From an uncultured bacterium (GTDB lineage Bacteria; Muiribacteriota; UBA9980), in assembly GCA_964551445.1 (NCBI GenBank), contig CAZKCG010000024.1, forward strand, positions 4,849 to 68,848: a stretch of 64,000 nucleotides of DNA, in the 5' to 3' direction. Position numbers and translations under genes: made by a program. This document shows positions 1-13,584 of the stretch, in pieces (the first letter of the stretch is position 1; each line of letters starts with the position of its first letter). The notes below the pieces were generated by a model. The model was not told the origin of the DNA, ran no database searches, and was given only the letters and a program-made list of their open reading frames with translations.

Positions 1-1057
1 AACCGTAATGGACGATACTTTCACCCTCGATCCGCAAAGGGTCGGATCGTTCTGCTTAGAAATGAATAAGTTAAGAAAAGAAAGAAACATCGCGTGGTAT
101 TGCGAGGGGCATGTCCGCACGCTCGCGAAGCACCCTGAAATGTTAAAAAATATGTCAGAGGCCGGGCTTTTAAGGCTGCAGATAGGCGTCGAAACAGGGT
201 GCCAGAGCGTGCTGGATATTTACAAAAAAAATACTACGTTAGACGAAATTGAATTTGTGGTCCGCGAGGCCGTCAGATGCAAAATACCCCAGATCGCCAC
301 GAACCTTATAATCGGCGGGCCGCTCGAAAACGAAAATGTTTTGAATGAAACCATTTCATTCGCCGAAAAATTATTGAATATCGCGCCCGGCGTTATCGAC
401 ATTACGACAGGTTTTTTAAGACCATATCCCGGAACGGCCATTTCGAATGACCCTTCGGCCTTCGGCCTTAAAATATTCGAAGACGGTGAACTGAGATCTT
501 TTGACGACTATCCTCCCGTTTCGGTCGACGGACTTTCAGCCGAGGATATAATCATCAACCGGGTAAAAACAGGCCGTCACATATCAAAAACAATGCGCGG
601 CCTTTTAAAGGAAAACAAGGTCGCTTACGAAGCAATGCTTTCGCAGTACAACGCGGCCCGCGAATACGGCGTGACAAGCATGTGGTATCTCGACGTGTTT
701 AAAAGGAATATATTTCTGGACGAATATTTCAGGCTCATATCAGGCGGTGCCGCGAAGCGCCTTTCGGAGGTTCCCGCCCTTGAATTCGCGGCATGGCGGC
801 CACAGCGCACGGTCGAAATATGGCGTAACGTAAATATGGCGAACGGCTATCCTGAAATAGACGGGTATGTTCTTTCTCCGCTCGAATTTGAACTTCTATT
901 GCGAAGCAGCGGCAAATTGACCTTTGACGAGGTATTGACCGGCCTTTACGGCATATTCGGCGATAAATTCGACGGCATGAATGAATTATCGGAACAGCTG
1001 ATGCAATTGCTGGAAAATTTCGACTCGAAATATTGGGTAGTTTTTTGCAAAATATGA
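1..1057 (+). CDS. B12-dependent (class B) radical SAM enzyme with C-terminal RRE/PqqD-like domain; 5'-truncated by the window edge
   Basis: Frame is open from the window start (..TVMDDTFT). DDTF, WYCEGH, IGVETG and PYPGT motifs, plus C-terminal LSPLEFELLLRSSGKLTFDEV..., align with the four full-length paralogs at 1464-9601. Confidence 0.85.
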   Translation, partial: TVMDDTFTLDPQRVGSFCLEMNKLRKERNIAWYCEGHVRTLAKHPEMLKNMSEAGLLRLQIGVETGCQSVLDIYKKNTTLDEIEFVVREAVRCKIPQIATNLIIGGPLENENVLNETISFAEKLLNIAPGVIDITTGFLRPYPGTAISNDPSAFGLKIFEDGELRSFDDYPPVSVDGLSAEDIIINRVKTGRHISKTMRGLLKENKVAYEAMLSQYNAAREYGVTSMWYLDVFKRNIFLDEYFRLISGGAAKRLSEVPALEFAAWRPQRTVEIWRNVNMANGYPEIDGYVLSPLEFELLLRSSGKLTFDEVLTGLYGIFGDKFDGMNELSEQLMQLLENFDSKYWVVFCKI

Positions 1058-1063
1058 TATAAT
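1055..1063 (+). promoter_or_regulatory. Extended -10 element (TGnTATAAT) upstream of the RiPP precursor
   Basis: TGATATAAT overlaps the upstream stop codon about 40 nt before the precursor ATG; no clear -35. Confidence 0.45.
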
Positions 1064-1100
1064 AAATCTACACGGATCCCAATCAAAAGGAGGTGAATAC

Positions 1101-1385
1101 ATGACAGCAAATAATGCAAAAGCCCTTCTGGCAAAGCTTCAAAGCGATGAGAAACTGGCGAAAGAACTCAAAAATTCGAAAAATGAATCCGAATTTTTGG
1201 AAAAAGCTAAAAAACACGGTTTCGAAGTAACGATCGCCGATTTCAAAAAAGCCACTGAAGAGCTGAAAAAATCCCACGCGAAAAGCGGACAGCTTTCCGA
1301 CGATGAACTCGAGAAAGTTGCGGGAGGTCTTTCATTGGTAGGCGTTGACTACGCTTTCGTAGGCGTACAGACAGCCAAAAAGTAG
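1101..1385 (+). CDS. Nif11-like leader RiPP precursor peptide (core LSLVGVDYAFVGVQTAKK)
   Basis: Strong RBS AGGAGGTGA. Leader AKALLAKLQSDEKL...AKKHGFEVT..DF...QLSDDELEKVAGG matches the Nif11/double-glycine leader consensus (LSDxELExVAGG). Flanked by RRE-bearing radical SAM genes. Confidence 0.9.
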   Translation: MTANNAKALLAKLQSDEKLAKELKNSKNESEFLEKAKKHGFEVTIADFKKATEELKKSHAKSGQLSDDELEKVAGGLSLVGVDYAFVGVQTAKK

Positions 1386-1414
1386 AAAGGTCAGAAATTG
1401 ATCAGTAACCTTTT

Positions 1415-1465
1415 ACCACGCTTCTTATAGACCCTCACAAAAGGGTTGAAGGAGCGTGGTTTTTT
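1415..1465 (+). terminator. Intrinsic terminator between the precursor and the convergent rSAM operon
   Basis: ACCACGCTTC...ACCCT-CACAAA-AGGGT...GGAGCGTGGT stem-loop followed by a T run. Confidence 0.7.
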
Positions 1466-3218
1466 ATGGAATGAAAATAATGAGATGTTTTTCTTCCATG
1501 GCTTTCAATGTTTGCCTGGCCGTCTCCAAAGTGTGCGGCAAAGTATCTCCATGCTTTTTAACGATCAGCTCCAGCACGGCCCCGAGCCGGTTCCTGCCGT
1601 CGCATAAAAGAGCGATGTCGAGTTCGAGCCCGCAAAGTTTATTTTCATCGATGACCGGTCTCGTTTGAATATAACCGCCGGCCGGACCTATGCCGAACGT
1701 TCTGCAGGGATAGCAAGAGTCTATCTTATCGGGCGGGATGTCATCGGAGTGCGAGCCGCGCGATAATATCATCATTTCGTAATATTGCTTGGCGAAAGGG
1801 TCCCTCGAATAAATAAAACGACACCAGCTGCTTGAAAGGCCGTATTTGAGAGAAAGATCGAAATGTTTTTTTATGCGCTCTCGCGGCACCGAACCTTTTT
1901 TGAAAAGCTTTAACATGCGTTCGACGGAGCGCGACAAAAATTTTCTCGCCGCCATGCTTATTTCAAATCTCGAAAGTTCTTGCGTTTCGGTTACCGGAAA
2001 ATCCTCGGTAGTCGTGATCGAACCGGGATCGAGGATGCGTATCCCGAAATCGCGCGGACATTTTGAAATGGCGGTATTCGGAAGCGGCATTATGAAAGTG
2101 GTCGAAATATCTATCATGCCCGGAGCCGCTTCGTGAAGCCCCTCGACGAATACCGTCGTCCGTTCGAGCGTCTCGTTGGTCTCGCGTGCCCCGCCTATTA
2201 TAAAATTTCCGGCCAGCTGGGCCAGACCGGCTTTATAGCATATACGGACGACCTCTTCTATATCATCCGTCGTGATCTTTTTGTCATAGAGTTCGAGCGA
2301 TTTGCCGCAGCCGGATTCCATTCCGATCTGCATGCGCGCCATGCCGGCTTTTACCATCATTTCAACCAGGTCGTGATTTTTTGAAAGAAGCGCGGCGTGC
2401 CCTTCGCAGAACCAGACAAAATGCCGCTCTTTTTTAAGCTCGGAAAGGGCCTGGCAAAATTCGCTCGTCCGGTTATAATTCAACGTAAATGTATCGTCGA
2501 CGAACCAAACGTAATTCGCGTCGGGGTTTTCCAGAAGTCCGCGTCTTATCTCTCCGATAACCTTTTCGACGCTTCGAAGCCTGAGCTTTTTAGTGTTGCC
2601 GCCCTCGAAGCAGAACGAGCAGCGGAAGGGACACCCGCGCGCCGACATCACCGAAAGATTATATTTTTTTCTGCCGCCGAGCTCGAAAGAAGCCGCAGGA
2701 AAGGGATAAAGATCGATCACTTCCGCGGGTTCGCGCGGCTCGTTGATCTTAAGGGCCCCGTTTTCGTCGATATATAAAACGCCTTTTATTTTTTCGAGTT
2801 CTCCGCGCCCGAGCGTCAGATATTCCATTAATTCAAAAAGCGCGGATTCGCCATCGCCCCGGACGATATAATCGCATTCCGAGCTTTTTATGAAATCTTC
2901 TCCGAGATTTATGGCTTGAGGGCCGCCGACGATAATTTTTACGCCATAAGTTTTTTTGAAATAACGGCTCATTTCTTCGACGGCGGATTGGTTGTCATAA
3001 TCGCAATAAAAGCCGGCAGCCGCGATCGGCGTCTTTTGAAATTCATCGCGAAAAATGTTCTCCGCGTCGGTAGTTATGCCGGTGAACGCCCTTGCCGTAT
3101 AGCCTTTTTCTTCAAGATACGCCGAGAGAGAGGAAATTCCAAGATTGCCAAGATGCTCGAATTTTCTTCCGTGAACTATTCGCTGAACGTACATGAGTAA
3201 TATGTATGGAGCGCTCAT
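1464..3218 (-). CDS. B12-binding radical SAM RiPP-modifying enzyme with C-terminal RRE-like domain (584 aa)
   Basis: N-terminal cobalamin-binding motifs (LGISSLSAYL, GGPQA, VRGDGE); RGCPFRCSFC (CxxxCxxC), DDTF, GMESG; C-terminal LELDIALLCDGRNRLGAV PqqD-like. Confidence 0.9.
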   Translation of the reverse strand: MSAPYILLMYVQRIVHGRKFEHLGNLGISSLSAYLEEKGYTARAFTGITTDAENIFRDEFQKTPIAAAGFYCDYDNQSAVEEMSRYFKKTYGVKIIVGGPQAINLGEDFIKSSECDYIVRGDGESALFELMEYLTLGRGELEKIKGVLYIDENGALKINEPREPAEVIDLYPFPAASFELGGRKKYNLSVMSARGCPFRCSFCFEGGNTKKLRLRSVEKVIGEIRRGLLENPDANYVWFVDDTFTLNYNRTSEFCQALSELKKERHFVWFCEGHAALLSKNHDLVEMMVKAGMARMQIGMESGCGKSLELYDKKITTDDIEEVVRICYKAGLAQLAGNFIIGGARETNETLERTTVFVEGLHEAAPGMIDISTTFIMPLPNTAISKCPRDFGIRILDPGSITTTEDFPVTETQELSRFEISMAARKFLSRSVERMLKLFKKGSVPRERIKKHFDLSLKYGLSSSWCRFIYSRDPFAKQYYEMMILSRGSHSDDIPPDKIDSCYPCRTFGIGPAGGYIQTRPVIDENKLCGLELDIALLCDGRNRLGAVLELIVKKHGDTLPHTLETARQTLKAMEEKHLIIFIP

Positions 3219-3232
3219 TTTATTAAATTCTC

Positions 3233-4999
3233 CTAAAAACGCGTATAACCGATCCAGCGGAGATCCTCGAATTTTTTCATCGCGGCTTTGAACCGTTCCG
3301 CGAAAACGAATTCATCGGGGATATCGGCGCTAAATTTTTTATGCGCGATCTCATAAACCTTTGAAAGCCTGTTTTTTCCGCTGCACAGAAGGATAAGTTC
3401 GTATTCGAGGGCCGACAGTTTTCTTCCGGCGATAGACGCTTCGCCTCCGGCGTAAACCAGCGTGCCGTAAATTTCAAAAACCCTTTGCGGATGCCATGAA
3501 TCAATATCGGCTTCCGGGACATCCTTTGAAGCCGATATAATATCCGATACCAGCATTTTATAGTAACCGTCCTCTATATGGTTGGCTGCGAAGATCCTTG
3601 TCAGCCAGACCGAACCGAGACCGTATTTGACTGCCAGTATGTAATTTTGCATAACCGTTTCCGGAGCTACCTCGCCGTTGAAATACATTTTTTTCATAAT
3701 GGAATATAATTTGATATTGAAATCAAAACCGGCGTTGGTAAGTTTATCCCACGGCATTTTTTCAGTTTCGGTAAGCGGCATGTCGGTAAGCGCTTGATCT
3801 TCCCTTTCCGAAAGAAAGCTGAGGCCGTAGGCTTCAGGATCACGCCTGATAGCGGTTCCGGGATAAGGTATAAGAAATCCTCCTACCATCTCGACACGGC
3901 CGGGACCCATGCGCATGAGCCTTTCAGCGAGATCCAGATCCGTTTTCATCATCGATTCGTCAGCCATATAGCCGCCGATAACTATGTTGCCTGATATCTG
4001 AGGGATCCCCGCCTCAACGGCTTTCATAACGACCGTTTCTATCATTTCCACGTTCGTCTGTTTTCCGTATTTTTTTAAAACCTCGTCGCTGCCCGATTCT
4101 ATACCGAGAAAGATCCTTCCCAGACCTGATTCCGCCATAAATTGAAGCATCTCGGGATTTTTTTTCAGCGGCTGGACATGGCCCATGCAGTGCCACATGA
4201 AGTCTCTCTCCGTTCTTAATTTAGCGAGTTCCTTCGATATCGATTCAACTCTCCGCGGATCGAACGCGAAAGTGTCGTCTGAAAAAAATAAGTGTCGGCA
4301 TTGCGGATGATTGTCAAAATGATATTTTATCTCATCGATGACGTTCGCGACGCTTCGAAAACGCATTCTGCCGCTGGTGCTTCCCTCATAACAGAAGGCG
4401 CACCTGTAGGGGCAGCCGCGGCCGGACATAATTGGGAAACCATACCATTTGTCGCTGTTGTTTTCCATAAGATAATCGGGAAAAGGAAGCGCGTCAAGAT
4501 CTTCTATCGGAGCCCTGTCAGGATTTTTCATAAAATTTCCGACGGCGTCCAGAAATGTTATCCCTTCGATCCGGCCGGGCTGTTTTTCGCCGCCGATATA
4601 ATGGCGCAAAAGTTCCAGCAGGGTATATTCAGCCTCGCCGCGAATTATAGCGTCACACCCCGACATTTTCAAAAAATCTGCGCCGAGGGAGATCGCCTGC
4701 GGGCCGCCCGCGAATATCGGTATATTCCAGTTGTTTTTAAAATTTTTTATCAACCGGCATACGTGGATATAATTTTCGTTGTCGCAATAAAAACCGGCGC
4801 ATTTAAAGCATTCTTCACGCATGATGGTTCCGGCCCATTCCATCGCCTGATGGGTGTAGCCGCGCAAAATTTTAACGGTGTAGCCGTTCTTTTTAACGAG
4901 CGCCGCGAGAAGAGCGAGCCCTATATTTATGCCTTTGGATTTTCCGCCCTCGCCGAGCACGTCGTGGTGAACGTTTATCAATAATATATCAATTGCCAT
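3233..4999 (-). CDS. B12-binding radical SAM enzyme with C-terminal RRE-like domain (588 aa)
   Basis: IGLALLAA, GGPQA, IRGEAE; RGCPYRCAFC; DDTF; GIESG; C-terminal LSALEYELILLCSGKNRL. Confidence 0.9.
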   Translation of the reverse strand: MAIDILLINVHHDVLGEGGKSKGINIGLALLAALVKKNGYTVKILRGYTHQAMEWAGTIMREECFKCAGFYCDNENYIHVCRLIKNFKNNWNIPIFAGGPQAISLGADFLKMSGCDAIIRGEAEYTLLELLRHYIGGEKQPGRIEGITFLDAVGNFMKNPDRAPIEDLDALPFPDYLMENNSDKWYGFPIMSGRGCPYRCAFCYEGSTSGRMRFRSVANVIDEIKYHFDNHPQCRHLFFSDDTFAFDPRRVESISKELAKLRTERDFMWHCMGHVQPLKKNPEMLQFMAESGLGRIFLGIESGSDEVLKKYGKQTNVEMIETVVMKAVEAGIPQISGNIVIGGYMADESMMKTDLDLAERLMRMGPGRVEMVGGFLIPYPGTAIRRDPEAYGLSFLSEREDQALTDMPLTETEKMPWDKLTNAGFDFNIKLYSIMKKMYFNGEVAPETVMQNYILAVKYGLGSVWLTRIFAANHIEDGYYKMLVSDIISASKDVPEADIDSWHPQRVFEIYGTLVYAGGEASIAGRKLSALEYELILLCSGKNRLSKVYEIAHKKFSADIPDEFVFAERFKAAMKKFEDLRWIGYTRF

Positions 5000-5055
5000 A
5001 TATAATTCCTTAATAAAGCCCTTTATAGACAGATTCCCCGAATCGGACCTTACGG

Positions 5056-6828
5056 TTAAAATCGCGAATAAGCCATCCAGCCCTTTCGTTCAAATTCGCC
5101 GAGGACCGCCGCCGCCTCTTTCCCGAATTCGTCGCGGCCGTCAAAAAGCCCGCCGAATTTCTGAAACGCTCTGTCCATAACTTCGGACAACTTCGTCTTT
5201 CCGGCGCACATAAGAAGCATCTCATATTCAAGCGGCGATAGAACGTCCTTCCCTATTGCCGGATAGCCTTCGTCGAAGGAAACCGTGTTCCATATTTCCA
5301 GAGTTCTCTGCGGATGCCATGAAAGTAATTCTTCAGGATTTATTTCATTAGACCGCCTTAGCGCGCCGCCGGCCAGCAGAGTATAATAATTGTATTTAAC
5401 GGCGTTCTCGGGATATACCTGGGCTATCCAGCGCGAATAAACGCCATATTTTATCAGCAGGGAGTAACTTTGAAGTATCGTTTCATAAGGTATGCCGCCG
5501 CTTCTATAAATTTTTCGCATTTCCTTCTGGACGCTCCTGTTGAATTCGAGCCTCGCCGCGAGAAGGTCTTCAAATCTCATGGCGTCCGTCTCTGAAAGCG
5601 GGATATCTTCAAGCGCCTGATTTTCACGCCGGCAGAGAGTCTTCATGCCGAATTTTTCTGGAGCGAGCGTTATGGCGGTTCCGGGGTAGGGTATGAAGAA
5701 AAAACCCGCCGTATCGAACCTGCCGGGCGCCACCCTTAAAAGCGCTTTTACGAGCGTCAGGCTTTCTTCGATAGTTTCAGGGCTTTCGACGGGGCCGCCC
5801 AGTATAATATTTCCGGCGACCTGCGCGATATTGGCTTTTTCTGATTCCGAGACCACCTTTATTATCATTTCGCGGTTCGTCTGCTTGCGGTATAATGAAA
5901 GGACCATGTCCGAACCGGATTCAACGCCGATAAAGAGTTTGGCCAGGCCGGCCGCCGACATCCGGTAAAGCATTTCAGGATCCCTGGCCAGCGTCTGAAC
6001 GTGCCCTTCGCAGAACCATACGAAGTCGATGTCACGCCTGAGACTCGTCAGGCCGTTACAGAAACTTTCAACTCTTTTAGGGTCAAGAGTGAAGGTGTCG
6101 TCTACGAAAAATAAATATTTACATTGCGGGTGGCGCGAAAAATGAATTTTGATTTCGTCAAGAACGCTTTCAACGCTTCTGTAGCGGACTTTTTTTATCC
6201 CGGCCCCTTCATGACAGAAAGCGCACCTGTATGGACAGCCCCTTCCGGTCATTACCGGAAAACTGTTCCATTTTTCATGACCTTTTTCGAGACGAAAGTC
6301 GGGATGGGGCAGTTTGTCCAGTTCCTCTATAGGGGTTCTGTCAGGAGTTTTGACGAACCCGCTTTCAGCGTCGAGATAAGAAATGCCGTCTATGTCGCAT
6401 AACTTTTTACCGTCCCGGAATATCGAATCGAGGAGTTCGAGCAGCGCGTATTCTCCTTCGCCGCGAACCACGGCGTCGCAGCGGGCCGCCTCGATGAATT
6501 CAGCGCCGAGATCCGATGCCTGCGGGCCGCCTATGAATACGGGCACATTGTATTTTTCCTTGATCCCGGCCGCCAGACCGGACACGAGCGTCATATTCTC
6601 GTAATCACAATAAAGACCAACGCTTTGGGGACCGCTTTCGCATGTGAACATTTTCATAAGTTCGTCCGCGCCGCAGGCCAACCCCATATGGACCCCGGCA
6701 TTGTAGCCGTGTTCCCTCAAAAAAACGGCGAGAAGGTTAAGCCCTATGGTCAGCCCGCCATTCAGAAAGCCCCAGTTGTCCCGGTGAACATTGACGAGTA
6801 ATATGTCGAGAGTTTTATTCTGTTCCAA
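5056..6828 (-). CDS. B12-binding radical SAM enzyme with C-terminal RRE-like domain (590 aa)
   Basis: TTG start with GGAG RBS; IGLNLLA, GGPQA, VRGEGE; RGCPYRCAFC; DDTF; GVESG; LSPLEYEMLLMCAGKTKL. Confidence 0.9.
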   Translation of the reverse strand: MEQNKTLDILLVNVHRDNWGFLNGGLTIGLNLLAVFLREHGYNAGVHMGLACGADELMKMFTCESGPQSVGLYCDYENMTLVSGLAAGIKEKYNVPVFIGGPQASDLGAEFIEAARCDAVVRGEGEYALLELLDSIFRDGKKLCDIDGISYLDAESGFVKTPDRTPIEELDKLPHPDFRLEKGHEKWNSFPVMTGRGCPYRCAFCHEGAGIKKVRYRSVESVLDEIKIHFSRHPQCKYLFFVDDTFTLDPKRVESFCNGLTSLRRDIDFVWFCEGHVQTLARDPEMLYRMSAAGLAKLFIGVESGSDMVLSLYRKQTNREMIIKVVSESEKANIAQVAGNIILGGPVESPETIEESLTLVKALLRVAPGRFDTAGFFFIPYPGTAITLAPEKFGMKTLCRRENQALEDIPLSETDAMRFEDLLAARLEFNRSVQKEMRKIYRSGGIPYETILQSYSLLIKYGVYSRWIAQVYPENAVKYNYYTLLAGGALRRSNEINPEELLSWHPQRTLEIWNTVSFDEGYPAIGKDVLSPLEYEMLLMCAGKTKLSEVMDRAFQKFGGLFDGRDEFGKEAAAVLGEFERKGWMAYSRF

Positions 6829-6901
6829 ATCATTCTCCAGTTATTCGTTTATAGAACCGCCATTTATCATCCGGCCCGTTGTTTCAGTCTTTTAATATAA
6901 T

Positions 6902-9601
6902 TCATATCTTTGAAAAAAGTACCCAGTATTTCGTTTCGAAGTCTAAAAGCATCATATTTACAGTGTTTTTTAATTCATCAAAATTTTCGAAGCATCGGAA
7001 AAATTTTTCATGCAATATATCGTAAATATTTCCAAGCATCGATTTGCCCGTGCAATGCAGCAGCAGCTCATATTCAAGGGGTGAAAGGACGTCATTTCCG
7101 ACGGCGGGATAGCCTCTGTCGAAATTCACCGCCATCCAGACGGCCATTATCCTCTGGGGCCGGAACGAAGATAATTCACCGGCGGATATTTCCATCGATC
7201 TTTGAGCGGCTCCGCGTGATATTATAGTAAAATAATTGTAAATAAAAGGGTCCGGTGAAAAAATCCCTGCATAATAAATTGAATCTATATTTTGTTCTTC
7301 ATGCAATTTGAAATGAGATAAAATGGTTTCAAAATCCACGGTCCTTGAACTCAATATTCGCGACATCCTGCTCGAAATATTCGAGTTTATTTGTTGAGCG
7401 GCCGCGATATGCTCATTGCGTTCAGTTTCATTATTAAAACCGCCGGCTCTTAAACAACCGTCATCCACATACGCTTCGAATACTCCCGGATAGGCGTCTA
7501 TCAGCGCCAGCGCGATATCGGCTGTTTTTAAAATCCGTTCGATATCTCCGGCAAAATTTTCCGGCGATATCCTTCCGGCGATTATTTTAATACCGATCTT
7601 CAGACAGTCATCCAGGGCGGTTCTATATTCACTTGTTCCTGTACCCGGGGTCATTTCGAGAATGATCCGGCGGACGCCCTCATCCTGAAGTTTCTTTAAT
7701 TTTCGAGCATTTACCCTTCCCGCGCCTTGAATTGATATAAATTCAGGTTTTATATCAATTTGACGAGCTTCGTCATTGCATTTCGGATCATGACAAACTA
7801 TTTGTTCGCGGCCGCGCGGCTTTTCCGAATAGCCGATCCAGAGTTTTTCTTCAAACCACCGCATTAATTTTAACGCCGTCCTTTGAAATTCAGTTTTCGA
7901 AGAATATCGATCGCTATATTCCGCGAAAACTTTATCCAATACCGCGGCCAGCGGCGACCCTCCGTCGCATAACGATAAGATCCGGTATTCCAGCGGTGAA
8001 AGAGCGCTTGCGCCTATCTTTGGAAAATCGCCTTTTATATCGATAAGATCGATCGGATCCATCACGGTCCGCGGATACAGGCCCATAAGACCTCCGGAAG
8101 GGGTGCCGCCGGTTAAAACAAAGTCTCCGGCGGCTAACTTTTTATAAAAATTATTGATGACAGAATTCTGTGAAAATACAACCTTGTACCAGTTGCTTTC
8201 AAGGCCGTAATTTTTATTGATCTTAAATTCATCTATGATTCTTTTGACCGGAATTTTACCCTTTTTATAAACATCGATCATCTTTTGCAGGATCTTTCTG
8301 GTAAAATCGCGCCTCATGGAGATTATTTGTTCGCGTGAAAGCTTTTTCGTTTCAATGACTGCCATATCGCCGATGGACGTGATCGAGCCGGGGTCTAAAA
8401 TTTTGATGTCGAACATGGCCGGATCATTACTTATGGCAGTTTTGGGAAGCGGAATAAAAAAAGTGGAAGTAATGTCGGTCATTCCGGGGCCGATATCTAT
8501 TAATCTTTTAGCGAAAGAAACCGTCCGGTTGAAAGATGTTTTTGATTCGGCGGCCCCGCCGATTATCATGTTTCCGGTAAGCTGAGGCAGGCCCGCTTTA
8601 TAAGAAAGCCCGGCCACCTTTTCCATATCTTCTAAAGTGGCCTGTTTTTTATATAAATTTAAAATTCTCGCTGAACCGGACTCCATGCCGATCTGCATTC
8701 TGGCAAGCCCGGATTCTATCATCATTGAAAGCGTGTCGGGCCATTTAATTATCGCGCTCGGATGGCACTCGCAGAACCAGACAAAATCGTGATCTTTTCG
8801 AAATTTTGAAAGACCTTTGCTGAAAGCCTCCATGCGTGAAGGATTTAGCGTAAACGTATCATCGGCGAACCAGATATATTTAATTTCGGGATTGTGGTCC
8901 AGCGCCTGTTTTATCTCAGAAAGAGAGTTCCCGACGCTGCGGAGCCGGACGCCGGACGAGACGCTTCCTTCATAACAGAAAGCGCATCTGAAAGGGCATC
9001 CTCTTCCGGTAAGAATTGAAATATCCTTGATATTTTTGCGGGCCGTTCCGTCAATACCGCTTTTTCTTAACGGCAACAGATCGAGGTTTGATATCGGAGG
9101 GCGCGCAGGATTTTTCACGAAATTGCCGCGATCGTCAAAATAACTCGCTCCGGCTATATCTTCGATCCTTCCGCGGCCGTTTAAAAAAAATTCAAGAAGT
9201 TCGTAAAGCGGATATTCACCTTCGCCGCGAACTACAGCATCGCATCGGGATCTTTTCATAAAATCCTCATCGAGCGCGACCGCTTGCGGCCCGCCTGCAA
9301 ATACTCTGGCGGAGGTATTTTCCTTTATGAAACTGGAAAAACTCTCGACGGTCGAAAGCGTTTCGAAATCACAGTAAAGCCCCACGGCGTCGACCGTTTT
9401 TTCGGAACTGCTCCGGTTAAGCAATTTTACCGCTTCGTGGACAGGACCGGAGTAAACGTAAGAAGAATAGCCTTTTTCTTCGACGAATGCAGCCAGAGCT
9501 TTCAAACCGAGAGGTTCGGTGCTCTGATACATATTTCCCGTGCCCAGACGGTTGACGTATAAAAGCAATATATGACCTTTTGAAATGACGTTGGTTTTCA
9601 A
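6902..9601 (-). CDS. B12-binding radical SAM enzyme with a duplicated C-terminal module and two RRE-like domains (899 aa)
   Basis: EPLGLKALAA, GGPQA, VRGEGE, RGCPFRCAFC, DDTF, GMESG; LSPLEY...C.G motif occurs twice. Confidence 0.88.
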   Translation of the reverse strand: MKTNVISKGHILLLYVNRLGTGNMYQSTEPLGLKALAAFVEEKGYSSYVYSGPVHEAVKLLNRSSSEKTVDAVGLYCDFETLSTVESFSSFIKENTSARVFAGGPQAVALDEDFMKRSRCDAVVRGEGEYPLYELLEFFLNGRGRIEDIAGASYFDDRGNFVKNPARPPISNLDLLPLRKSGIDGTARKNIKDISILTGRGCPFRCAFCYEGSVSSGVRLRSVGNSLSEIKQALDHNPEIKYIWFADDTFTLNPSRMEAFSKGLSKFRKDHDFVWFCECHPSAIIKWPDTLSMMIESGLARMQIGMESGSARILNLYKKQATLEDMEKVAGLSYKAGLPQLTGNMIIGGAAESKTSFNRTVSFAKRLIDIGPGMTDITSTFFIPLPKTAISNDPAMFDIKILDPGSITSIGDMAVIETKKLSREQIISMRRDFTRKILQKMIDVYKKGKIPVKRIIDEFKINKNYGLESNWYKVVFSQNSVINNFYKKLAAGDFVLTGGTPSGGLMGLYPRTVMDPIDLIDIKGDFPKIGASALSPLEYRILSLCDGGSPLAAVLDKVFAEYSDRYSSKTEFQRTALKLMRWFEEKLWIGYSEKPRGREQIVCHDPKCNDEARQIDIKPEFISIQGAGRVNARKLKKLQDEGVRRIILEMTPGTGTSEYRTALDDCLKIGIKIIAGRISPENFAGDIERILKTADIALALIDAYPGVFEAYVDDGCLRAGGFNNETERNEHIAAAQQINSNISSRMSRILSSRTVDFETILSHFKLHEEQNIDSIYYAGIFSPDPFIYNYFTIISRGAAQRSMEISAGELSSFRPQRIMAVWMAVNFDRGYPAVGNDVLSPLEYELLLHCTGKSMLGNIYDILHEKFFRCFENFDELKNTVNMMLLDFETKYWVLFSKI

Positions 9602-9677
9602 TTTATCTCCGGAATAATTTACTTAAAGCGATCAGGCTTGGTTAAAATTAATTATTGTGAACGGCTCAATATTTTTT

Positions 9678-9706
9678 ATCATATCATAAAATCATAAGTT
9701 TTTCAA
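9678..9706 (-). promoter_or_regulatory. Sigma70-type promoter for the radical SAM operon
   Basis: TTGAAA-17 nt-TATGAT on the minus strand, with TG upstream of the -10, about 75 nt before the TTG start at 9601. Confidence 0.55.
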
Positions 9707-9873
9707 TGAATTCAAAAATGCCGTTCATTAAAAAAGATGTCGCATGTTTTGCTATTGGCTAAAACATGATGTATATGTTATAATATTTTAGTATATTGAA
9801 ATCATTTATAATTTTTTGCGGTATCCGCTCCGCCGGCATTCCGCTGATAAATTTTCGAAAAAAGGTGATTTAC

Positions 9874-11085
9874 ATGAACTTTATTCCATACGCCAGGCAT
9901 AATCTCGACGAATCGGATATCGAAGCCGTAGTAACGGCGCTTAGATCCGATTGGATAACCACCGGCCCGAAAGTGCCGGAATTTGAAGAAAGAATAAAGG
10001 ACGGCTGCGGGGCAAAACACGTTATCGCGTTAAATTCATGCACCGCCGCTCTTCATATATCGATGCTCGCGGCCGGGATCGGTCCCGGCGATGAAGTTAT
10101 AACGACTCCCATGACCTTCGCCGCGACATCCAACGCCGTGCTATACTGCGGCGCTACGCCGGTATTTGTCGATATTGAAAGGGAAACGCATAATCTTAAT
10201 CCGTCGCTTATAGAAGAAAAAATAACCGCCAGGACGAAAGCCATCGTTCCCGTCCATTACGGCGGCCACCCCTGCCGCATGAAAGAGATATACGCGATAG
10301 CTAAAAAACACGGCCTGTTCGTTATCGAGGACGCCGCGCACGCATTCACCGCCGAATATCATAACGATGAGATCGATATGTGGAATAAAATAGGAGATTC
10401 GGCCGACGAAACTTCACTCGCGACATGCTTTTCGTTTCATCCGGTCAAAAATTTCACTTCCGGCGAGGGCGGGGCTATCGCGACCAACGATGACGCGTTC
10501 GCTTACAAATGCCAGCTTCTCAGAAACCACGGCATCTCCCGCGACGCGTGGAAAAGATTCGGCGAGGGCGGCAGCTGGTTCTATGAAATGGTCGGGCTCG
10601 GCTTCAAGTATAACCTAATGGATATGCAGGCGGCCCTTGGCATCTCGCAGCTCAAGCGTTTCGCCGCCATGCAGGCTCGCCGCTTCGAGGTCGTTAAAAT
10701 GTACAAACAGGGCCTGCGCGGCCTGGATGAGATAATCCTTCCTTTCGAAAAACCATACGCCCGGTCCGCGTGGCATTTATATGTCATCAACCTTAATTTC
10801 GAATACCTCAAGACCGATTCGTCTTCCGGCATAGTCGCCGAAATGGCCGGAAGAAATACGGCCGTGGAACATCTCAGATCCGCCCATATAGGCTGTAACG
10901 TTCATTACATTCCCGTCTACCGCCATCCGTATTACGCGGACCGCTTTAAAATAGACCCTTCTAAATATCCCGTCACCGAAGATTTTTATAATTCGTGCAT
11001 AACTCTTCCGATGCATGCCGGACTCACCGATGAAGAAGTTCAATATGTTATATCAGAAGTAAAGGCGCTTTTCATGAAAAAATAA
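9874..11085 (+). CDS. pseC: DegT/DnrJ/EryC1/StrS family PLP-dependent sugar aminotransferase (PseC-like)
   Basis: IPYARH..DIEAV..LRSDWITTGP, NSCTAALH, EDAAHA, SFHPVKNFTSGEGG. ATG 9874 follows AAGGTGA and is preferred over TTG 9796. Confidence 0.75.
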   Translation: MNFIPYARHNLDESDIEAVVTALRSDWITTGPKVPEFEERIKDGCGAKHVIALNSCTAALHISMLAAGIGPGDEVITTPMTFAATSNAVLYCGATPVFVDIERETHNLNPSLIEEKITARTKAIVPVHYGGHPCRMKEIYAIAKKHGLFVIEDAAHAFTAEYHNDEIDMWNKIGDSADETSLATCFSFHPVKNFTSGEGGAIATNDDAFAYKCQLLRNHGISRDAWKRFGEGGSWFYEMVGLGFKYNLMDMQAALGISQLKRFAAMQARRFEVVKMYKQGLRGLDEIILPFEKPYARSAWHLYVINLNFEYLKTDSSSGIVAEMAGRNTAVEHLRSAHIGCNVHYIPVYRHPYYADRFKIDPSKYPVTEDFYNSCITLPMHAGLTDEEVQYVISEVKALFMKK

Positions 11086-11142
11086 AAAACGCCTTCACCA
11101 TTCTGTTTATTTAACGCCGGACCGGCGCTTGTTTTAGAAACT

Positions 11143-11322
11143 TCAGCCGGAGGGCGCGCAAAAGAAATCTCTAACGGATCTGACGAGGCTTACGAGTTTT
11201 TTGACCTCGTCGGATCCGCACTCCGGGCATTTAACTTCACCCGGCTTTTCCGACAGGGTTTTGCTTATTATTTTCTCGAATTCTGATCCGCACTTTTTAC
11301 ATTCAAATTCATAAAGGGCCAT
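11143..11322 (-). CDS. FmdB family zinc-ribbon regulatory protein (59 aa; possibly extended to 11134 by Sec readthrough)
   Basis: Not in the ORF track (<60 aa). Hand translation MALYEFECKKCGSEFEKIISKTLSEKPGEVKCPECGSDEVKKLVSLVRSVRDFFCAPSG*; two CxxC pairs, RBS GGAGGTGA, consensus promoter upstream. Confidence 0.88.
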   Translation of the reverse strand: MALYEFECKKCGSEFEKIISKTLSEKPGEVKCPECGSDEVKKLVSLVRSVRDFFCAPSG

Positions 11323-11378
11323 AATTCACCTCCACTAAAGAATATTAAGTATTCGTATTACATTTATTACTAATATTT

Positions 11379-11407
11379 ATTATACCATGTCCCGGCCTGT
11401 TTGTCAA
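11379..11407 (-). promoter_or_regulatory. Consensus sigma70 promoter of the FmdB-like gene
   Basis: TTGACA-17 nt-TATAAT with extended -10 TG. Confidence 0.8.
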
Positions 11408-11620
11408 CATGCAGGCAAGAACTGTTGCATTCGAAAGACTTAAGAAGCCGGCGACTTTAATATCTTTTTTTCCGGCTTTGAACAGTGACTGGCCGCTGTT
11501 ACAGTTCGGAAAGTTCTGGCCGTTTAAACGGCCGCGCCGGAGATGACGCGTAACGACAAAATTTACGCCGGCCTGAAACCCGGATGTTTTTCAGCCGCTG
11601 CCGGCGTCTTATTACCCTAA

Positions 11621-11650
11621 TTGCAAAATAAGCATTGGATGTGGTATAAT
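11621..11650 (+). promoter_or_regulatory. Sigma70-type promoter
   Basis: TTGCAA-18 nt-TATAAT with TGG extension, upstream of the 11697 CDS. Confidence 0.55.
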
Positions 11651-11696
11651 CATATGGAACGGACGATGAAACGGATCTTAAAGGTCAATAAGTTTT

Positions 11697-12461
11697 ATGA
11701 ATAACATAATAACCGAAAAAAAAATAAAATACCGGGCGCGCGAAATAAATTATTTTGAGTTCGAATTTCACCGTTTTTCGCTCTTCGCCTGGCGCCGCGA
11801 CCTTGTCGCGGGCGGCGGGGTTCCGGCGATGGCCGTGACCATCGACAGGCATTACGACTTTTTGAAAGCCCAAGACGCTTCTCTTAAAGCTTTTTCGTCC
11901 TATAAAAACACGGCTGAGTTATTTGATAATACCGACAAATTGCCCGCGCCGCAAAATTACGATTTCATATCCTATGCGATATATGACGCCATGTGCTCCG
12001 ATGTTCTCGTCGTCGCTTACGAAAAATATCATGAGATAGAACTGCGCTCCATGCTGGATCGAAATTATCCGCTCGAAGACAAAAACGGCGGCGTTCACTT
12101 TTTATCCGTCATTCACTCGCTTAACGATCTTCTGGCTGAAGACTCGCCGTTTGAAACTTCAAAGACATACGAACAGGCGAAGAAGAGGCTTGCCTCGGCT
12201 CAGCGTATAATACTTGACATAGACCTCGATTATTTCACATATCAATCCCCGGATAATGGTGTTTTCGCGAGAAGTGAAGAAGATATCGAGGAAAACTTCG
12301 TTAAAATATCCAAAGGCCTTGCCGGGTTGCTGGAGCGCGTTACGACGATCGCCGTTGCCCGTGAAACGATATGCTGCGGCGGAGAAGGACAGATGCTGAA
12401 AATAAAGGCGGTCCTGAAACGCCTGTTCTTAAGATACCTGGATCTTGACCTGCCGTTATAG
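11697..12461 (+). CDS. UPF0489 family protein (arginase/deacetylase-like fold)
   Basis: H..SL.AW, IDRHYD and ILDIDLDYF motifs. Confidence 0.65.
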   Translation: MNNIITEKKIKYRAREINYFEFEFHRFSLFAWRRDLVAGGGVPAMAVTIDRHYDFLKAQDASLKAFSSYKNTAELFDNTDKLPAPQNYDFISYAIYDAMCSDVLVVAYEKYHEIELRSMLDRNYPLEDKNGGVHFLSVIHSLNDLLAEDSPFETSKTYEQAKKRLASAQRIILDIDLDYFTYQSPDNGVFARSEEDIEENFVKISKGLAGLLERVTTIAVARETICCGGEGQMLKIKAVLKRLFLRYLDLDLPL

Positions 12462-12649
12462 GAACCGGAGCGTCCCGAAAGCCAACCGCTGGAAGGAAGC
12501 AGCCCTTTTAAAAATGAAATAGAACGATAAATTTTGCGCAAAGCTCAAAAAAATGAAACATTTTTATAAACAACGGGGTATAATGATGTGTAAGAAAATT
12601 TTATGCCGGAATCAAATTATTAAATAAATTTAAGAAAGCGGTGATTTTT

Positions 12650-13483
12650 ATGAGTTTGAAATTCAAATGGAGCGTCCTTGCTTTTACGATAATTTTAGCT
12701 CTCGCGTTCGCCGGAAACTCTTTCGGTTCCTCGATCGATGATACGCTTCAAAGCCTTAACCAGGCGACCGTTTCAAAAGACGGTAATTCGGGCAATGCAA
12801 AACCCGGCGCCAGCGCCGCTAAAGACGACTCGAACGCCGACGGCTTCAAAGCGCACATTGAGGTCAATTCATGGCTTAACGTAAGAACCAGCCCCTGGGG
12901 CGCGATAACGGGCAAACTCACCGACGGCGAAGAGGTCGAGGTCATAGGCAAGACCGGCAAATGGTATAAGATAAAACGCGGCGGCAAGATCTGCTACATA
13001 TATTCAGACTATGTCAAAAAAGGCGGGTCTGACAACAAAAAGGCCGCCTCCGGCAAAAAAGATTCAAATTCATCAAGCGGAAACAAAAATTCGTCGCCCG
13101 CTTCCTCCGCCTCCGGCAGTGACGGCCAAAAGATAGTTAAATGCGCCGAAAGATACATCGGTTCGACCCAGTTTAGAAGCGCCGCGGTTGATTACGGCAA
13201 TCTCGCCTGCGCCCAGTTCGTTTCGACCGCGCTTAAAGACGCCGGAGTTATGAACCGCGTTCTGCTCAATGTGTCGGGCGTAGTGAGCGATCTGAAAAGC
13301 AAAGGCTGGAAAACCGTCAGCCCGCCATATAAAGCCGGCGACGTAATAACATGGAACCACAACGGCCATATCGGTTTCATCGACGGCAAGGGTCAGGCTA
13401 TCTCGAATTCTTCATCGCTTAGAACGCCGAGAAGGAACGGTATCTATTATATGTCGGTAACTCAGGTCCTCAGGCAGTCCTAG
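12650..13483 (+). CDS. Secreted SH3b-domain peptidoglycan hydrolase with NlpC/P60-like (Cys-His) C-terminal domain
   Basis: Signal peptide; SH3b (LNVRTSPWG..GKWYKIK..YIYSDYV); Ser-rich linker; LACAQFVSTAL..GDVITW..GHIG. Confidence 0.75.
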   Translation: MSLKFKWSVLAFTIILALAFAGNSFGSSIDDTLQSLNQATVSKDGNSGNAKPGASAAKDDSNADGFKAHIEVNSWLNVRTSPWGAITGKLTDGEEVEVIGKTGKWYKIKRGGKICYIYSDYVKKGGSDNKKAASGKKDSNSSSGNKNSSPASSASGSDGQKIVKCAERYIGSTQFRSAAVDYGNLACAQFVSTALKDAGVMNRVLLNVSGVVSDLKSKGWKTVSPPYKAGDVITWNHNGHIGFIDGKGQAISNSSSLRTPRRNGIYYMSVTQVLRQS

Positions 13484-13529
13484 ATTATGCGAAGTTTGGA
13501 ATATATAAATAATTTAATATAATTTTTCA

Positions 13530-13556
13530 GGGCACCAGGCTTAAAACCCGGTGCCC
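13530..13556 (+). repeat. Intergenic hairpin GGGCACC...GGTGCCC, copy 1 of the tandem duplication
   Basis: Near-identical copy at 16834-16860, each in front of a 684-aa gene. Confidence 0.7.
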
Positions 13557-13584
13557 GTTCCTCTATTAACGAAAGGAAGTAAAG

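Follow-up and report, generated by a model that had tools for sequence, protein, structure and literature searches.

The 64,000-nucleotide (nt) stretch of DNA analyzed here (hereafter, the window) spans positions 4,849 to 68,848 of contig CAZKCG010000024.1 (C24) in the genome of an uncultured bacterium of the Muiribacteriota (UBA9980; GCA_964551445.1; G000). At its left end lies a cluster in which the gene for a 94-amino acid (aa) precursor with a Nif11-type leader is surrounded by paralogous genes for radical S-adenosylmethionine (SAM) enzymes that depend on cobalamin (B12; B12-rSAMs). We consider it fairly probable that this is a complete cluster for a peptide that is ribosomally synthesized and then post-translationally modified (a RiPP), of an undescribed family, in which seven B12-rSAMs, each fused to a domain related to the RiPP recognition element (RRE), act on a single core peptide, most likely by C-methylation, a chemistry that we infer from characterized enzymes. 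A description of the cluster was not found in the literature, in searches that included the core motif string and that did not extend to supplements or subscription-only papers.

Organization of the Cluster

The genome is a draft of 141 contigs (95% complete, 5.5% contamination), and contig C24 continues for 4,848 nt to the left of the window. This part contained the remainder of the enzyme gene rS3 and two more paralogs, rS1 and rS2. The features of the cluster are given below in window coordinates unless stated otherwise, with scores against models of the B12-binding domain (PF02310) and the radical SAM domain (PF04055) and with the phylogenetic group of each enzyme.

Contig C24 461–2269 (outside the window), + strand: rS1, 602 aa, group A'
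Contig C24 2361–4121 (outside the window), + strand: rS2, 586 aa, group D
Contig C24 4136–5905 (window 2–1057 holds the 3' 351 codons), + strand: rS3, 589 aa, group E
1086–1095, + strand: Shine-Dalgarno sequence AAAGGAGGTG, 5 nt before the precursor ATG, read directly in the sequence
1101–1385, + strand: precursor peptide gene, 94 aa, PF07862 43.8 bits, TIGR03798 54.4 bits, with a family alignment
1101–1328, + strand: Nif11-type leader of the precursor, 76 aa, GG at its end
1329–1382, + strand: precursor core, 18 residues, LSLVGVDYAFVGVQTAKK
1415–1465, + strand: intrinsic terminator, consisting of a bulged 18-bp hairpin and then U6
1464–3218, − strand: rS7, 584 aa, group A, PF02310 32.6 bits, PF04055 67.1 bits, C-terminal RRE-like domain
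3233–4999, − strand: rS6, 588 aa, group C (lineage-specific duplicate), PF02310 36.9 bits, PF04055 82.8 bits
5056–6828, − strand: rS5, 590 aa, group C, PF02310 43.4 bits, PF04055 70.2 bits
6902–9601, − strand: rS4, whole gene, 899 aa, first gene of the convergent operon
7817–9601, − strand: rS4 catalytic module, residues 1–595, group B, PF02310 42.7 bits, PF04055 60.0 bits
6902–7816, − strand: rS4 tail, residues 596–899 and stop codon, a decayed half-module

Genes rS1-rS2-rS3-precursor on the forward strand face rS4-rS5-rS6-rS7 on the reverse strand, where rS7 is the last gene of the convergent operon, and intergenic gaps across the cluster are 15–92 nt. The contig starts with 460 nt of AT-rich non-coding DNA ahead of rS1. 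From contig position 1 to window position 9601, no open reading frame (ORF) of at least 150 aa was detected besides the B12-rSAMs. A sequence-only reading of the window had described one enzyme gene upstream of the precursor on the same strand and a convergent operon of four, had remarked that the cluster is cut by the left edge of the window, and had seen no epimerase, lanthionine synthetase, or YcaO, all of which held. Its count of at least five enzymes was correct for the five genes that it had located and too low for the cluster, which comprises seven on the extended contig. Its expectation that the upstream sequence might hold further radical SAM genes or a C39-peptidase ATP-binding cassette (ABC) exporter was borne out for the former, of which there were two; no C39 exporter was detected on C24.

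Searching the whole genome with rS5 recovered seven full-length paralogs (rS5 itself and six others), all of them on C24, and one additional, partial match within rS4. The six others were 36–44% identical to rS5 over ~580 residues (E ≤ 1e-117), and the next-best match, outside the cluster, was 31% identical and lacked the C-terminal third. An array of seven such paralogs far exceeds what is expected by chance. Genes beyond rS4 were not conserved, with a DegT/PseC aminotransferase here versus a GNAT protein and a LanM in a relative of the same family (G003), and the right-hand boundary of the cluster was therefore placed at rS4.

A Nif11-Leader Precursor With a Highly Conserved Core

The 94-aa product was confirmed as a Nif11-leader precursor, since it scored above the cut-offs of both Nif11 models (23.8 bits for PF07862 and 32.3 bits for TIGR03798); it also has a GG end, a short core, and maturase genes around it. 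A nitrile-hydratase-type model was not among its family-model matches, and the leader fits Nif11 only. In the ORF list for window positions 1–14,000, the leader terminus is LSDDELEKVAGG (...KVAGG), followed by the core LSLVGVDYAFVGVQTAKK. The strong ribosome-binding site and dedicated terminator reported from the bare sequence were both recovered. The former is AAAGGAGGTG, and the hairpin of the latter (1415–1460; −26.8 kcal/mol, z = −6.2) was more stable than any of 200 shuffled sequences and precedes the U6 tract. A simple consensus scan returned no forward-strand terminator near 1415–1460; its loop limit of 3–8 nt is unsuited to a bulged stem.

A search of 5.8 billion proteins yielded 18 relatives of the precursor, including the query, and 11 further precursors came from the loci of related genomes; the resulting alignment comprised 22 sequences. 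GG was kept in 21 of these. Core residues V4, G5, D7, Y8, and F10 were invariant in all 22 and L1, S2, A9, and T15 were nearly invariant, leaving a consensus that is nearly fixed across phyla (LS-x-VG-V/I-DY-A-F). Mean pairwise identity was 86% over core positions 1–10 and 76% over positions 1–15, as compared to 49% over the leader. RiPP leaders are usually better conserved than the cores that they precede. A core that is more conserved than its leader is unusual among RiPPs and, at the level of sequence, hints at a conserved function.

Domain Composition of the Enzymes

The four enzymes that are complete in the window had been credited with a B12-binding N-terminus and a CxxxCxxC motif, and they scored above the cut-offs of both domain models (32.6–43.4 bits for PF02310, cut-off 32.1 bits; 60.0–82.8 bits for PF04055). 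Full-length rS3 scored 57.8 and 78.0 bits, respectively. Among all seven enzymes, PF04055 was above its cut-off in each and PF02310 in five (32.6–57.8 bits); scores for rS1 and rS2 were below the PF02310 threshold (19.1 and 27.1 bits), yet the match spans the whole domain. The CxxxCxxC and GGPQ motifs were kept in seven of seven, and CX3CX2C was kept in 63 of 63 modules of related loci. When a profile of 76 family members was compared to the PDB, it matched OxsB, CysS, 9ccb, AprD4, and TokK through the B12 and radical SAM parts only, to approximately residue 423. Because no NCBIfam cut-off was reached and the PDB matches cover only these two domains, we regard the enzymes, on the basis of sequence, as radical SAM proteins of the class B type whose family is uncurated. 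This agrees with the earlier description of them as class B enzymes, and the curated families missed include TIGR03975 and NF050148. Names in databases were generic: ‘radical SAM protein’ or ‘B12-binding domain-containing radical SAM protein’ for the enzymes and ‘Nif11-like leader peptide family RiPP precursor’ for the precursor.

The product of rS4 is longer than its paralogs. Its TTG start at 9601 keeps a conserved N-terminal ILLxxVxR block; an alternative gene call (P0030) encodes 876 aa. Residues 596–899 aligned best with residues 323–584 of rS2 (34.8% identity over 273 aa, E = 1e-38) and included a part 39% identical to residues 419–589 of rS5; rS4 carries the RRE-like C-terminal domain twice, with the additional copy at the end of the tail. 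No CxxxCxxC motif, B12 domain, or Pfam family was detected in the tail. By sequence comparison, what remains here resembles the relic of a fusion of the B-D type, a counterpart of the F-D fusions that are intact in Bacillota and Synergistota. Relatives also have long enzyme forms (872–912 aa).

The C-termini of the enzymes had been described as resembling PqqD or an RRE. That likeness was recovered through remote, profile-level links and did not extend to direct Pfam matches in the window proteins. PF05402 (PqqD) matched the extreme C-terminus of three of three full-length homologs that were checked (P0088, P0117, and P0119; 25.5, 29.0, and 25.7 bits; cut-off 23.4 bits). An hhalign comparison of 51 C-termini of the family with 20 true PqqD domains, drawn from genomes of the same phylum, gave E = 2.2e-4 over 53 columns, in register 14–66 of 67. 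The profile of the domain detected 106 proteins at E ≤ 0.001 among 1.84 billion representatives, and these were mostly family enzymes of ~580–600 aa. Ten short matches were picked from the weak end of this list; two were stand-alone PqqD proteins (42.7 and 34.8 bits; profile E = 3.0e-4 and 4.8e-4), and the other eight comprised one sub-threshold winged-helix protein, one weak MarR match, and six with no family. As a lead only, a language-model atlas placed the last 89 residues of the homolog P0046 near clusters of MftB and PqqD chaperones (0.86–0.87). From these comparisons we conclude that the C-terminal domain is related to the RRE but divergent and specific to this family, with a predicted winged-helix fold and predicted binding to the leader.

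Phylogenetic Groups and Division of Labor

Maximum-likelihood reconstruction of 63 modules (IQ-TREE, LG+G4, 590 columns, midpoint root) recovered seven groups, each on one side of a branch with an ultrafast bootstrap (UFboot) of 100 and a Shimodaira-Hasegawa-like approximate likelihood ratio test (SH-aLRT) of 97–100.

Group A: rS7 of the window and 9 other rows of the alignment
Group A': rS1 and 1 other row
Group B: rS4 and 3 other rows
Group C: rS5 and rS6 and 15 other rows
Group D: rS2 and 9 other rows
Group E: rS3 and 9 other rows
Group F: no window member; 6 N-terminal modules of fused proteins

Groups A, C, and E each span six phyla and group D spans five. Groups B and F never occurred in the same locus, and the fork joining them is unsupported either way; judging from their sequences, they may be counterparts. 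The gene order D-E-precursor-C-A was common to L011 and to the Bacillota and Synergistota loci, and relative to this order the B-C-C-A block is inverted in the window. We interpret these sequence relationships as five anciently separated classes (A–E), with A' and the second C copy being putative lineage-specific duplicates in this genome. The persistence of five separate, fully supported classes across phyla fits a scheme in which each would catalyze a distinct required step, and the presence of five to seven such orthologous groups argues for steps that are non-redundant. The earlier suggestion of one enzyme per site or step is compatible with these cross-phylum groups.

Distribution and Co-occurrence of Precursor and Enzymes

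One genome per species was scanned, and 17 loci (L010–L026) had a match that extended through the C-terminal domain. The best of these was from Candidatus Wallbacteria bacterium GWC2_49_35 (84% identity), a match by which the organism of the window would probably belong to that lineage. Arrays of four to seven modules were identified in six phyla: Wallbacteria, Vulcanimicrobiota, Acidobacteriota, Thermodesulfobacteriota, Bacillota, and Synergistota. The Bacillota holders were Eubacteriaceae ES2, ‘Ca. Formimonas warabiya’ DCMF, and metagenome-assembled genomes (MAGs) of an Acetobacterium and a member of the Clostridiales. The loci of Bacillota and Synergistota encode two of the modules as a single fused protein of 1192–1266 aa. 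Homologs of the enzymes are also carried by Acetobacterium wieringae, Sporomusa malonica, and Heliomicrobium undosum.

The precursor accompanied the enzymes in 11 of the 17 loci, which span six named phyla, and this co-occurrence supports the identification of a RiPP cluster. The six exceptions were contig fragments or members of a single-copy subfamily. Specifically, L012 is on a contig of 7.7 kb that is wholly taken up by enzyme genes, L015 is from another contig of the MAG in which L011 was found, and L019, L022, L023, and L025 are single-copy relatives from rumen Selenomonadales, Quinella, and Ruminococcus. Arrays without a precursor had been named in advance as evidence against the RiPP interpretation; no complete array of this kind was seen among the relatives. 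The single-copy rumen relatives may represent a different subfamily, perhaps a distinct uncharacterized system. The gene in L022, the only one of the four whose surroundings were scanned, is flanked by a dynamin-like GTPase and a SPASM radical SAM gene, and a second GTPase is encoded downstream. Judged by ORF sizes, all four loci share flanking genes of ~590 aa and ~385 aa, which in L022 are that first GTPase and the SPASM gene.

Within the phylum of the window, the precursor was detected in 7 of 87 genomes including its own, all from one family: it was present in six of the eight other genomes of that family and in none of the 78 genomes of other families. Precursor and enzyme domain were both lacking from a genome of the same genus, which again supports a RiPP cluster. 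Matches in four of the relatives were as follows.

G030, same genus: 0 precursor matches, 0 C-terminal domain matches
G010, same family: 0 precursor matches, 1 C-terminal domain match, within an open frame of 483 aa that we take to be a fragment
G003, same family: 1 precursor match, 7 C-terminal domain matches
G020, same family: 2 precursor matches, 9 C-terminal domain matches

The cluster of G003 has six enzymes, and the GNAT and LanM genes mentioned above lie beyond its rS4 homolog.

Proposed Biosynthesis and Its Alternatives

In the pathway that we propose, the precursor would be translated as a 76-aa Nif11 leader with a Gly-Gly end joined to the core LSLVGVDYAFVGVQTAKK. Each of the seven enzymes would recruit it through its own C-terminal PqqD-like (RRE) domain and would perform a radical reaction at its own position of the core. 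The leader would then be cut after Gly-Gly, and the peptide would be exported by a C39-peptidase ABC transporter encoded on contig C21. Leader docking, the order of steps, the residues modified, methylation, and export in trans are all predicted. The chemistry would most likely consist of several methylations of unactivated carbons, possibly with cross-links, because BotRMT1-3, PoyB/PoyC, and the RRE-containing ApyD methylate RiPP precursors. Each of BotRMT1-3 has residues of its own to methylate (Phe, Val, and Pro), and the targets of PoyB/PoyC are Val, Ile, and Met (PMC11285071); the B12-rSAM ApyD, which contains an RRE, produces beta-methyl-Tyr (PMC11117315). The best candidates for modification are the beta-carbons of Val4, Val/Ile6, Tyr8, Phe10, and Val/Thr11, or flanking Leu/Ile, and the outcome would be a hypermethylated hydrophobic peptide. 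V4, V/I6, Y8, and F10 are spaced i, i+2, i+4, and i+6 and would lie on one face of an extended strand, each with a beta C-H like those that characterized enzymes methylate; with V/T11 or L1/I3 added, it is our speculation that these constitute five sites for five classes.

Genes for export were detected near some related arrays. C39-peptidase ABC transporters lie directly beside the array in L017, L020, and L024 (three of ten flanking proteins scanned). Another ABC protein and an HlyD-like protein are also encoded in L017. The flanking genes scanned in related loci revealed no further conserved component apart from these transport genes. The best C39 match in the genome of the window (126.8 bits) is a 727-aa frame on contig C21. 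Because this candidate is on another contig, we infer, rather than observe, cleavage of the leader and export in trans. Given that neither CobS nor CobD/CbiB was found, cobalamin import would be needed, and the organism may depend on imported corrinoids. Even so, a B12-binding radical SAM query matched the genome 26 times.

A number of results weigh against this interpretation. No window enzyme reached a curated NCBIfam cut-off; the best NCBIfam match was HpnJ, a non-RiPP enzyme (107–131 bits; cut-off 577.6 bits), and scores fell far short of membership for TIGR03975 (PoyB/C-type; 26.7–69.8 bits; cut-off 281.85 bits) and for the ApyD model NF050148 (77.9–102.9 bits; cut-off 750 bits). The last of these was nevertheless the best RiPP-specific model for three of the four complete window enzymes, and it ranked second overall for two. 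None of the eight C-terminal domains of the window matched a Pfam family, PqqD included, at E ≤ 10. PF05402 was detected in only 2 of 51 family C-termini, weakly (best E = 0.06), and a PDB profile search with the domain gave six matches, all at E ≥ 0.67 and none an RRE. The hhalign probability for the link to PqqD was 45%. The phylogenetic groups were read off a quick tree and then re-scored, and rows flagged in the alignment included the long branches L024, L014, and L025 and seven of deviant composition. No C39 domain was detected on C24, nor an exporter or peptidase in its cluster, and CobS (PF02654) and CobD/CbiB (PF03186) were not found in this 95%-complete genome. Finally, no product of the reactions has been seen, and methylation is not readable from the fold because B12-rSAMs also form aryl C-C cross-links (PbsB; PMC12257519), and their repertoire includes thioether formation, ring contraction, and ring formation (PMC13331322).

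This breadth of chemistry bears on an alternative that we regard as credible but unlikely, namely that the same RiPP cluster installs cross-links (e.g., Tyr8-Phe10, i, i+2) or rearranges side chains and thereby produces a rigid polycyclic peptide. PbsB cross-links aromatic side chains at the same i, i+2 spacing over an F-R-F motif (PMC12257519), and ThnL, OxsB, and BchE are B12-rSAMs with non-methylating chemistry (PMC13331322). D7, Y8, and F10 are invariant in all 22 precursors, as a cross-linked product might demand, and the enzymes reached no curated methyltransferase model. However, PbsB requires prior ortho-hydroxylation by an oxidative enzyme that depends on multinuclear non-heme iron (MNIO; PMC12257519), and none is encoded in this cluster. 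Most of the characterized peptide-modifying B12-rSAMs surveyed (BotRMT1-3, PoyB/C, ApyD, and the clavusporin enzyme) are methyltransferases, and five enzyme classes exceed the need of one or two cross-links.

Two further explanations concern the fate of the peptide and the number of active enzymes. The peptide could be the scaffold from which a diffusible small molecule or a redox cofactor is made, in the manner of PqqA for pyrroloquinoline quinone (PQQ) and of MftA for mycofactocin. The identity of the core (86%) relative to the leader (49%), a relation opposite to that in most antimicrobial RiPPs, its retention in six phyla of mostly anaerobic lineages, and, as a lead only, the proximity of the C-terminal domain to MftB and PqqD chaperones are in line with this idea. 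Against it stand the double-glycine leader in 21 of 22 precursors and the C39-peptidase ABC exporters that adjoin the cluster in three loci, which point to export of a peptide. No conserved peptidase, oxidoreductase, or other excision enzyme was present in the loci examined, and a distribution as patchy as 7 of 87 genomes of a phylum, in one family, is unlike that of a core cofactor; we consider a cofactor role very improbable. Slighter still, in our estimation, is the chance that the paralogs are largely redundant or partly inactive, with one or two iterative enzymes doing the work and the rest serving as scaffolds or decaying as duplicates. PoyC and CysS act iteratively (PMC11285071, PMC13331322), rS4 carries a decayed half-module, duplications specific to the lineage account for A' and the second C copy, and the score of the B12 domain was sub-threshold in two of seven enzymes. 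However, CX3CX2C was intact in 63 of 63 modules, the five classes are separate with full support across up to six phyla, and L011 shares the D-E-precursor-C-A order with the loci of Bacillota and Synergistota, none of which is expected of dispensable copies.

We return to a set of dedicated enzymes that probably C-methylate one core. A broader version, which we hold only tentatively and think unlikely, is that of an ancient, horizontally shared pathway whose five classes act on a nearly invariant VG-V-DY-A-F core with chemistry beyond methylation and with a conserved role in anaerobes. If true, this would constitute a new RiPP class with new B12-rSAM reactions (e.g., beta-methylations together with aromatic/aliphatic C-C cross-links), and its product could act in anaerobes on membranes, in signaling, or as a carrier of metal or redox equivalents. 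Cyclopropylglycine synthase chemistry was also considered and set aside: TvgB, the enzyme that had suggested it, is described as a radical SAM enzyme with a SPASM domain (RS-SPASM; PMC10878394) rather than as a B12 enzyme.

Neighboring Genes and Other RiPP Loci

Genes next to the cluster and to its relatives, and other RiPP loci in the genome, were as follows.

9796–11085, + strand: DegT/PseC-type sugar aminotransferase, TIGR03588 423.0 bits (cut-off 423.5 bits), divergent from rS4
11143–11322, − strand: FmdB-type zinc-ribbon protein near the cluster
11697–12461, + strand: 254-aa ORF with sub-threshold matches to UPF0489 (22.9 bits; cut-off 27 bits) and to FlmR/OhkR arginase (21.8 bits; cut-off 350 bits)
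L116 5870–10106 (contig C32 of G003): class II lanthipeptide synthetase (DUF4135 and LANC_like, 1095 aa) and GNAT protein beside the rS4 homolog
L021 5474–6088 (Acetobacterium): GNAT protein just upstream of the array
Contig C91 (L001 3–3164): second Nif11 cluster, in which the B12-rSAM gene is shorter and lacks the C-terminal domain, the core that follows GG in the precursor is Gly/Ala-rich, and a 429-aa ORF lies downstream
Contig C51 12659–24315: at least 12 tandem ORFs with weak Nif11-leader matches (E = 1e-6 to 1e-3)

Neither the aminotransferase nor the FmdB-type protein is kept beside the cluster in G003. Peptide arginases of Candidatus Wallbacteria have been characterized (PMC8597712). 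A peptide arginase role was rejected for the ORF at 11697–12461, as the core has no Arg, and this ORF is probably unrelated to the precursor. A lanthipeptide reading was likewise rejected: a LanM adjoins the cluster in G003, but the core has no Cys. Judging from their sequences, the ORFs of C51 resemble a prochlorosin-type array of multiple precursors. Finally, the assemblies of both genomes break a few hundred bases upstream of the rS1 homolog (at the start of C24 and at the end of contig C32 of G003), which suggests a repeat or another element that is hard to assemble.

Comparison With Characterized Systems

Among known systems, bottromycin biosynthesis is close in its logic, in that several paralogous B12-rSAMs act on one short core, each with its own residue type (PMC11285071). 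By analogy, BotRMT1-3 (BmbB, BmbF, and BmbJ) would be the best precedent for one enzyme per site. Bottromycin has a follower peptide and enzymes of other types, including an O-methyltransferase (PMC11285071), whereas the cluster described here has a Nif11 leader and B12-rSAMs only. Compared by description, bottromycin has three such enzymes, as opposed to five classes (seven genes) here.

A nitrile-hydratase-like leader and, in the same cluster, a radical SAM epimerase define the proteusins. Membership was rejected for the system described here, for which TIGR03975 scores were far below threshold, the leader is Nif11 only, and neither an epimerase nor another tailoring gene is in the cluster. 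The two systems are alike in that PoyB/PoyC C-methylate residues of a long-leader precursor, namely Val, Ile, and Met (PMC11285071). They differ in that two iterative enzymes accomplish this in proteusins versus five dedicated classes here.

ApyD of the aminopyruvatide pathway is likewise an RRE-containing B12-rSAM that acts on a RiPP precursor, beta-methylating Tyr (PMC11117315). The match to NF050148 covers the B12 and radical SAM domains only and, at no more than 102.9 bits against a cut-off of 750, led us to reject membership in the ApyD family. ApyD works with a P450 and an MNIO, whereas B12-rSAMs are the sole enzymes here. PbsB of the biphenomycin-like pathway acts on a conserved aromatic-x-aromatic core motif, as may the enzymes described here (PMC12257519). 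It differs, compared by description, in forming an aryl C-C cross-link after hydroxylation by an MNIO; no MNIO, arginase, or cupin is present in the cluster. Clavusporins, again compared by description, are made with a single B12-rSAM and a DUF5825 protein (cited in PMC12257519), in contrast to an array of RRE-fused enzymes.

Collectively, these comparisons indicate that the tailoring of RiPPs by B12-rSAMs is already known, and that what is new is the use of five to seven RRE-fused paralogs, in ancient classes, as the sole tailoring enzymes, together with a core that is conserved across six phyla. Cobalamin-dependent radical SAM enzymes carry out some of the most difficult C-H functionalizations, and to our knowledge few that modify peptides have been characterized. 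A panel of five to seven diverged enzymes with a single small and fixed substrate in common is offered here for the study of site selectivity and possibly of reaction type, and what they make is probably a new peptide with heavy tailoring. Cultivable anaerobes that carry the whole cluster (‘Ca. Formimonas warabiya’ DCMF and Eubacteriaceae ES2) place both its chemistry and its role within experimental reach.

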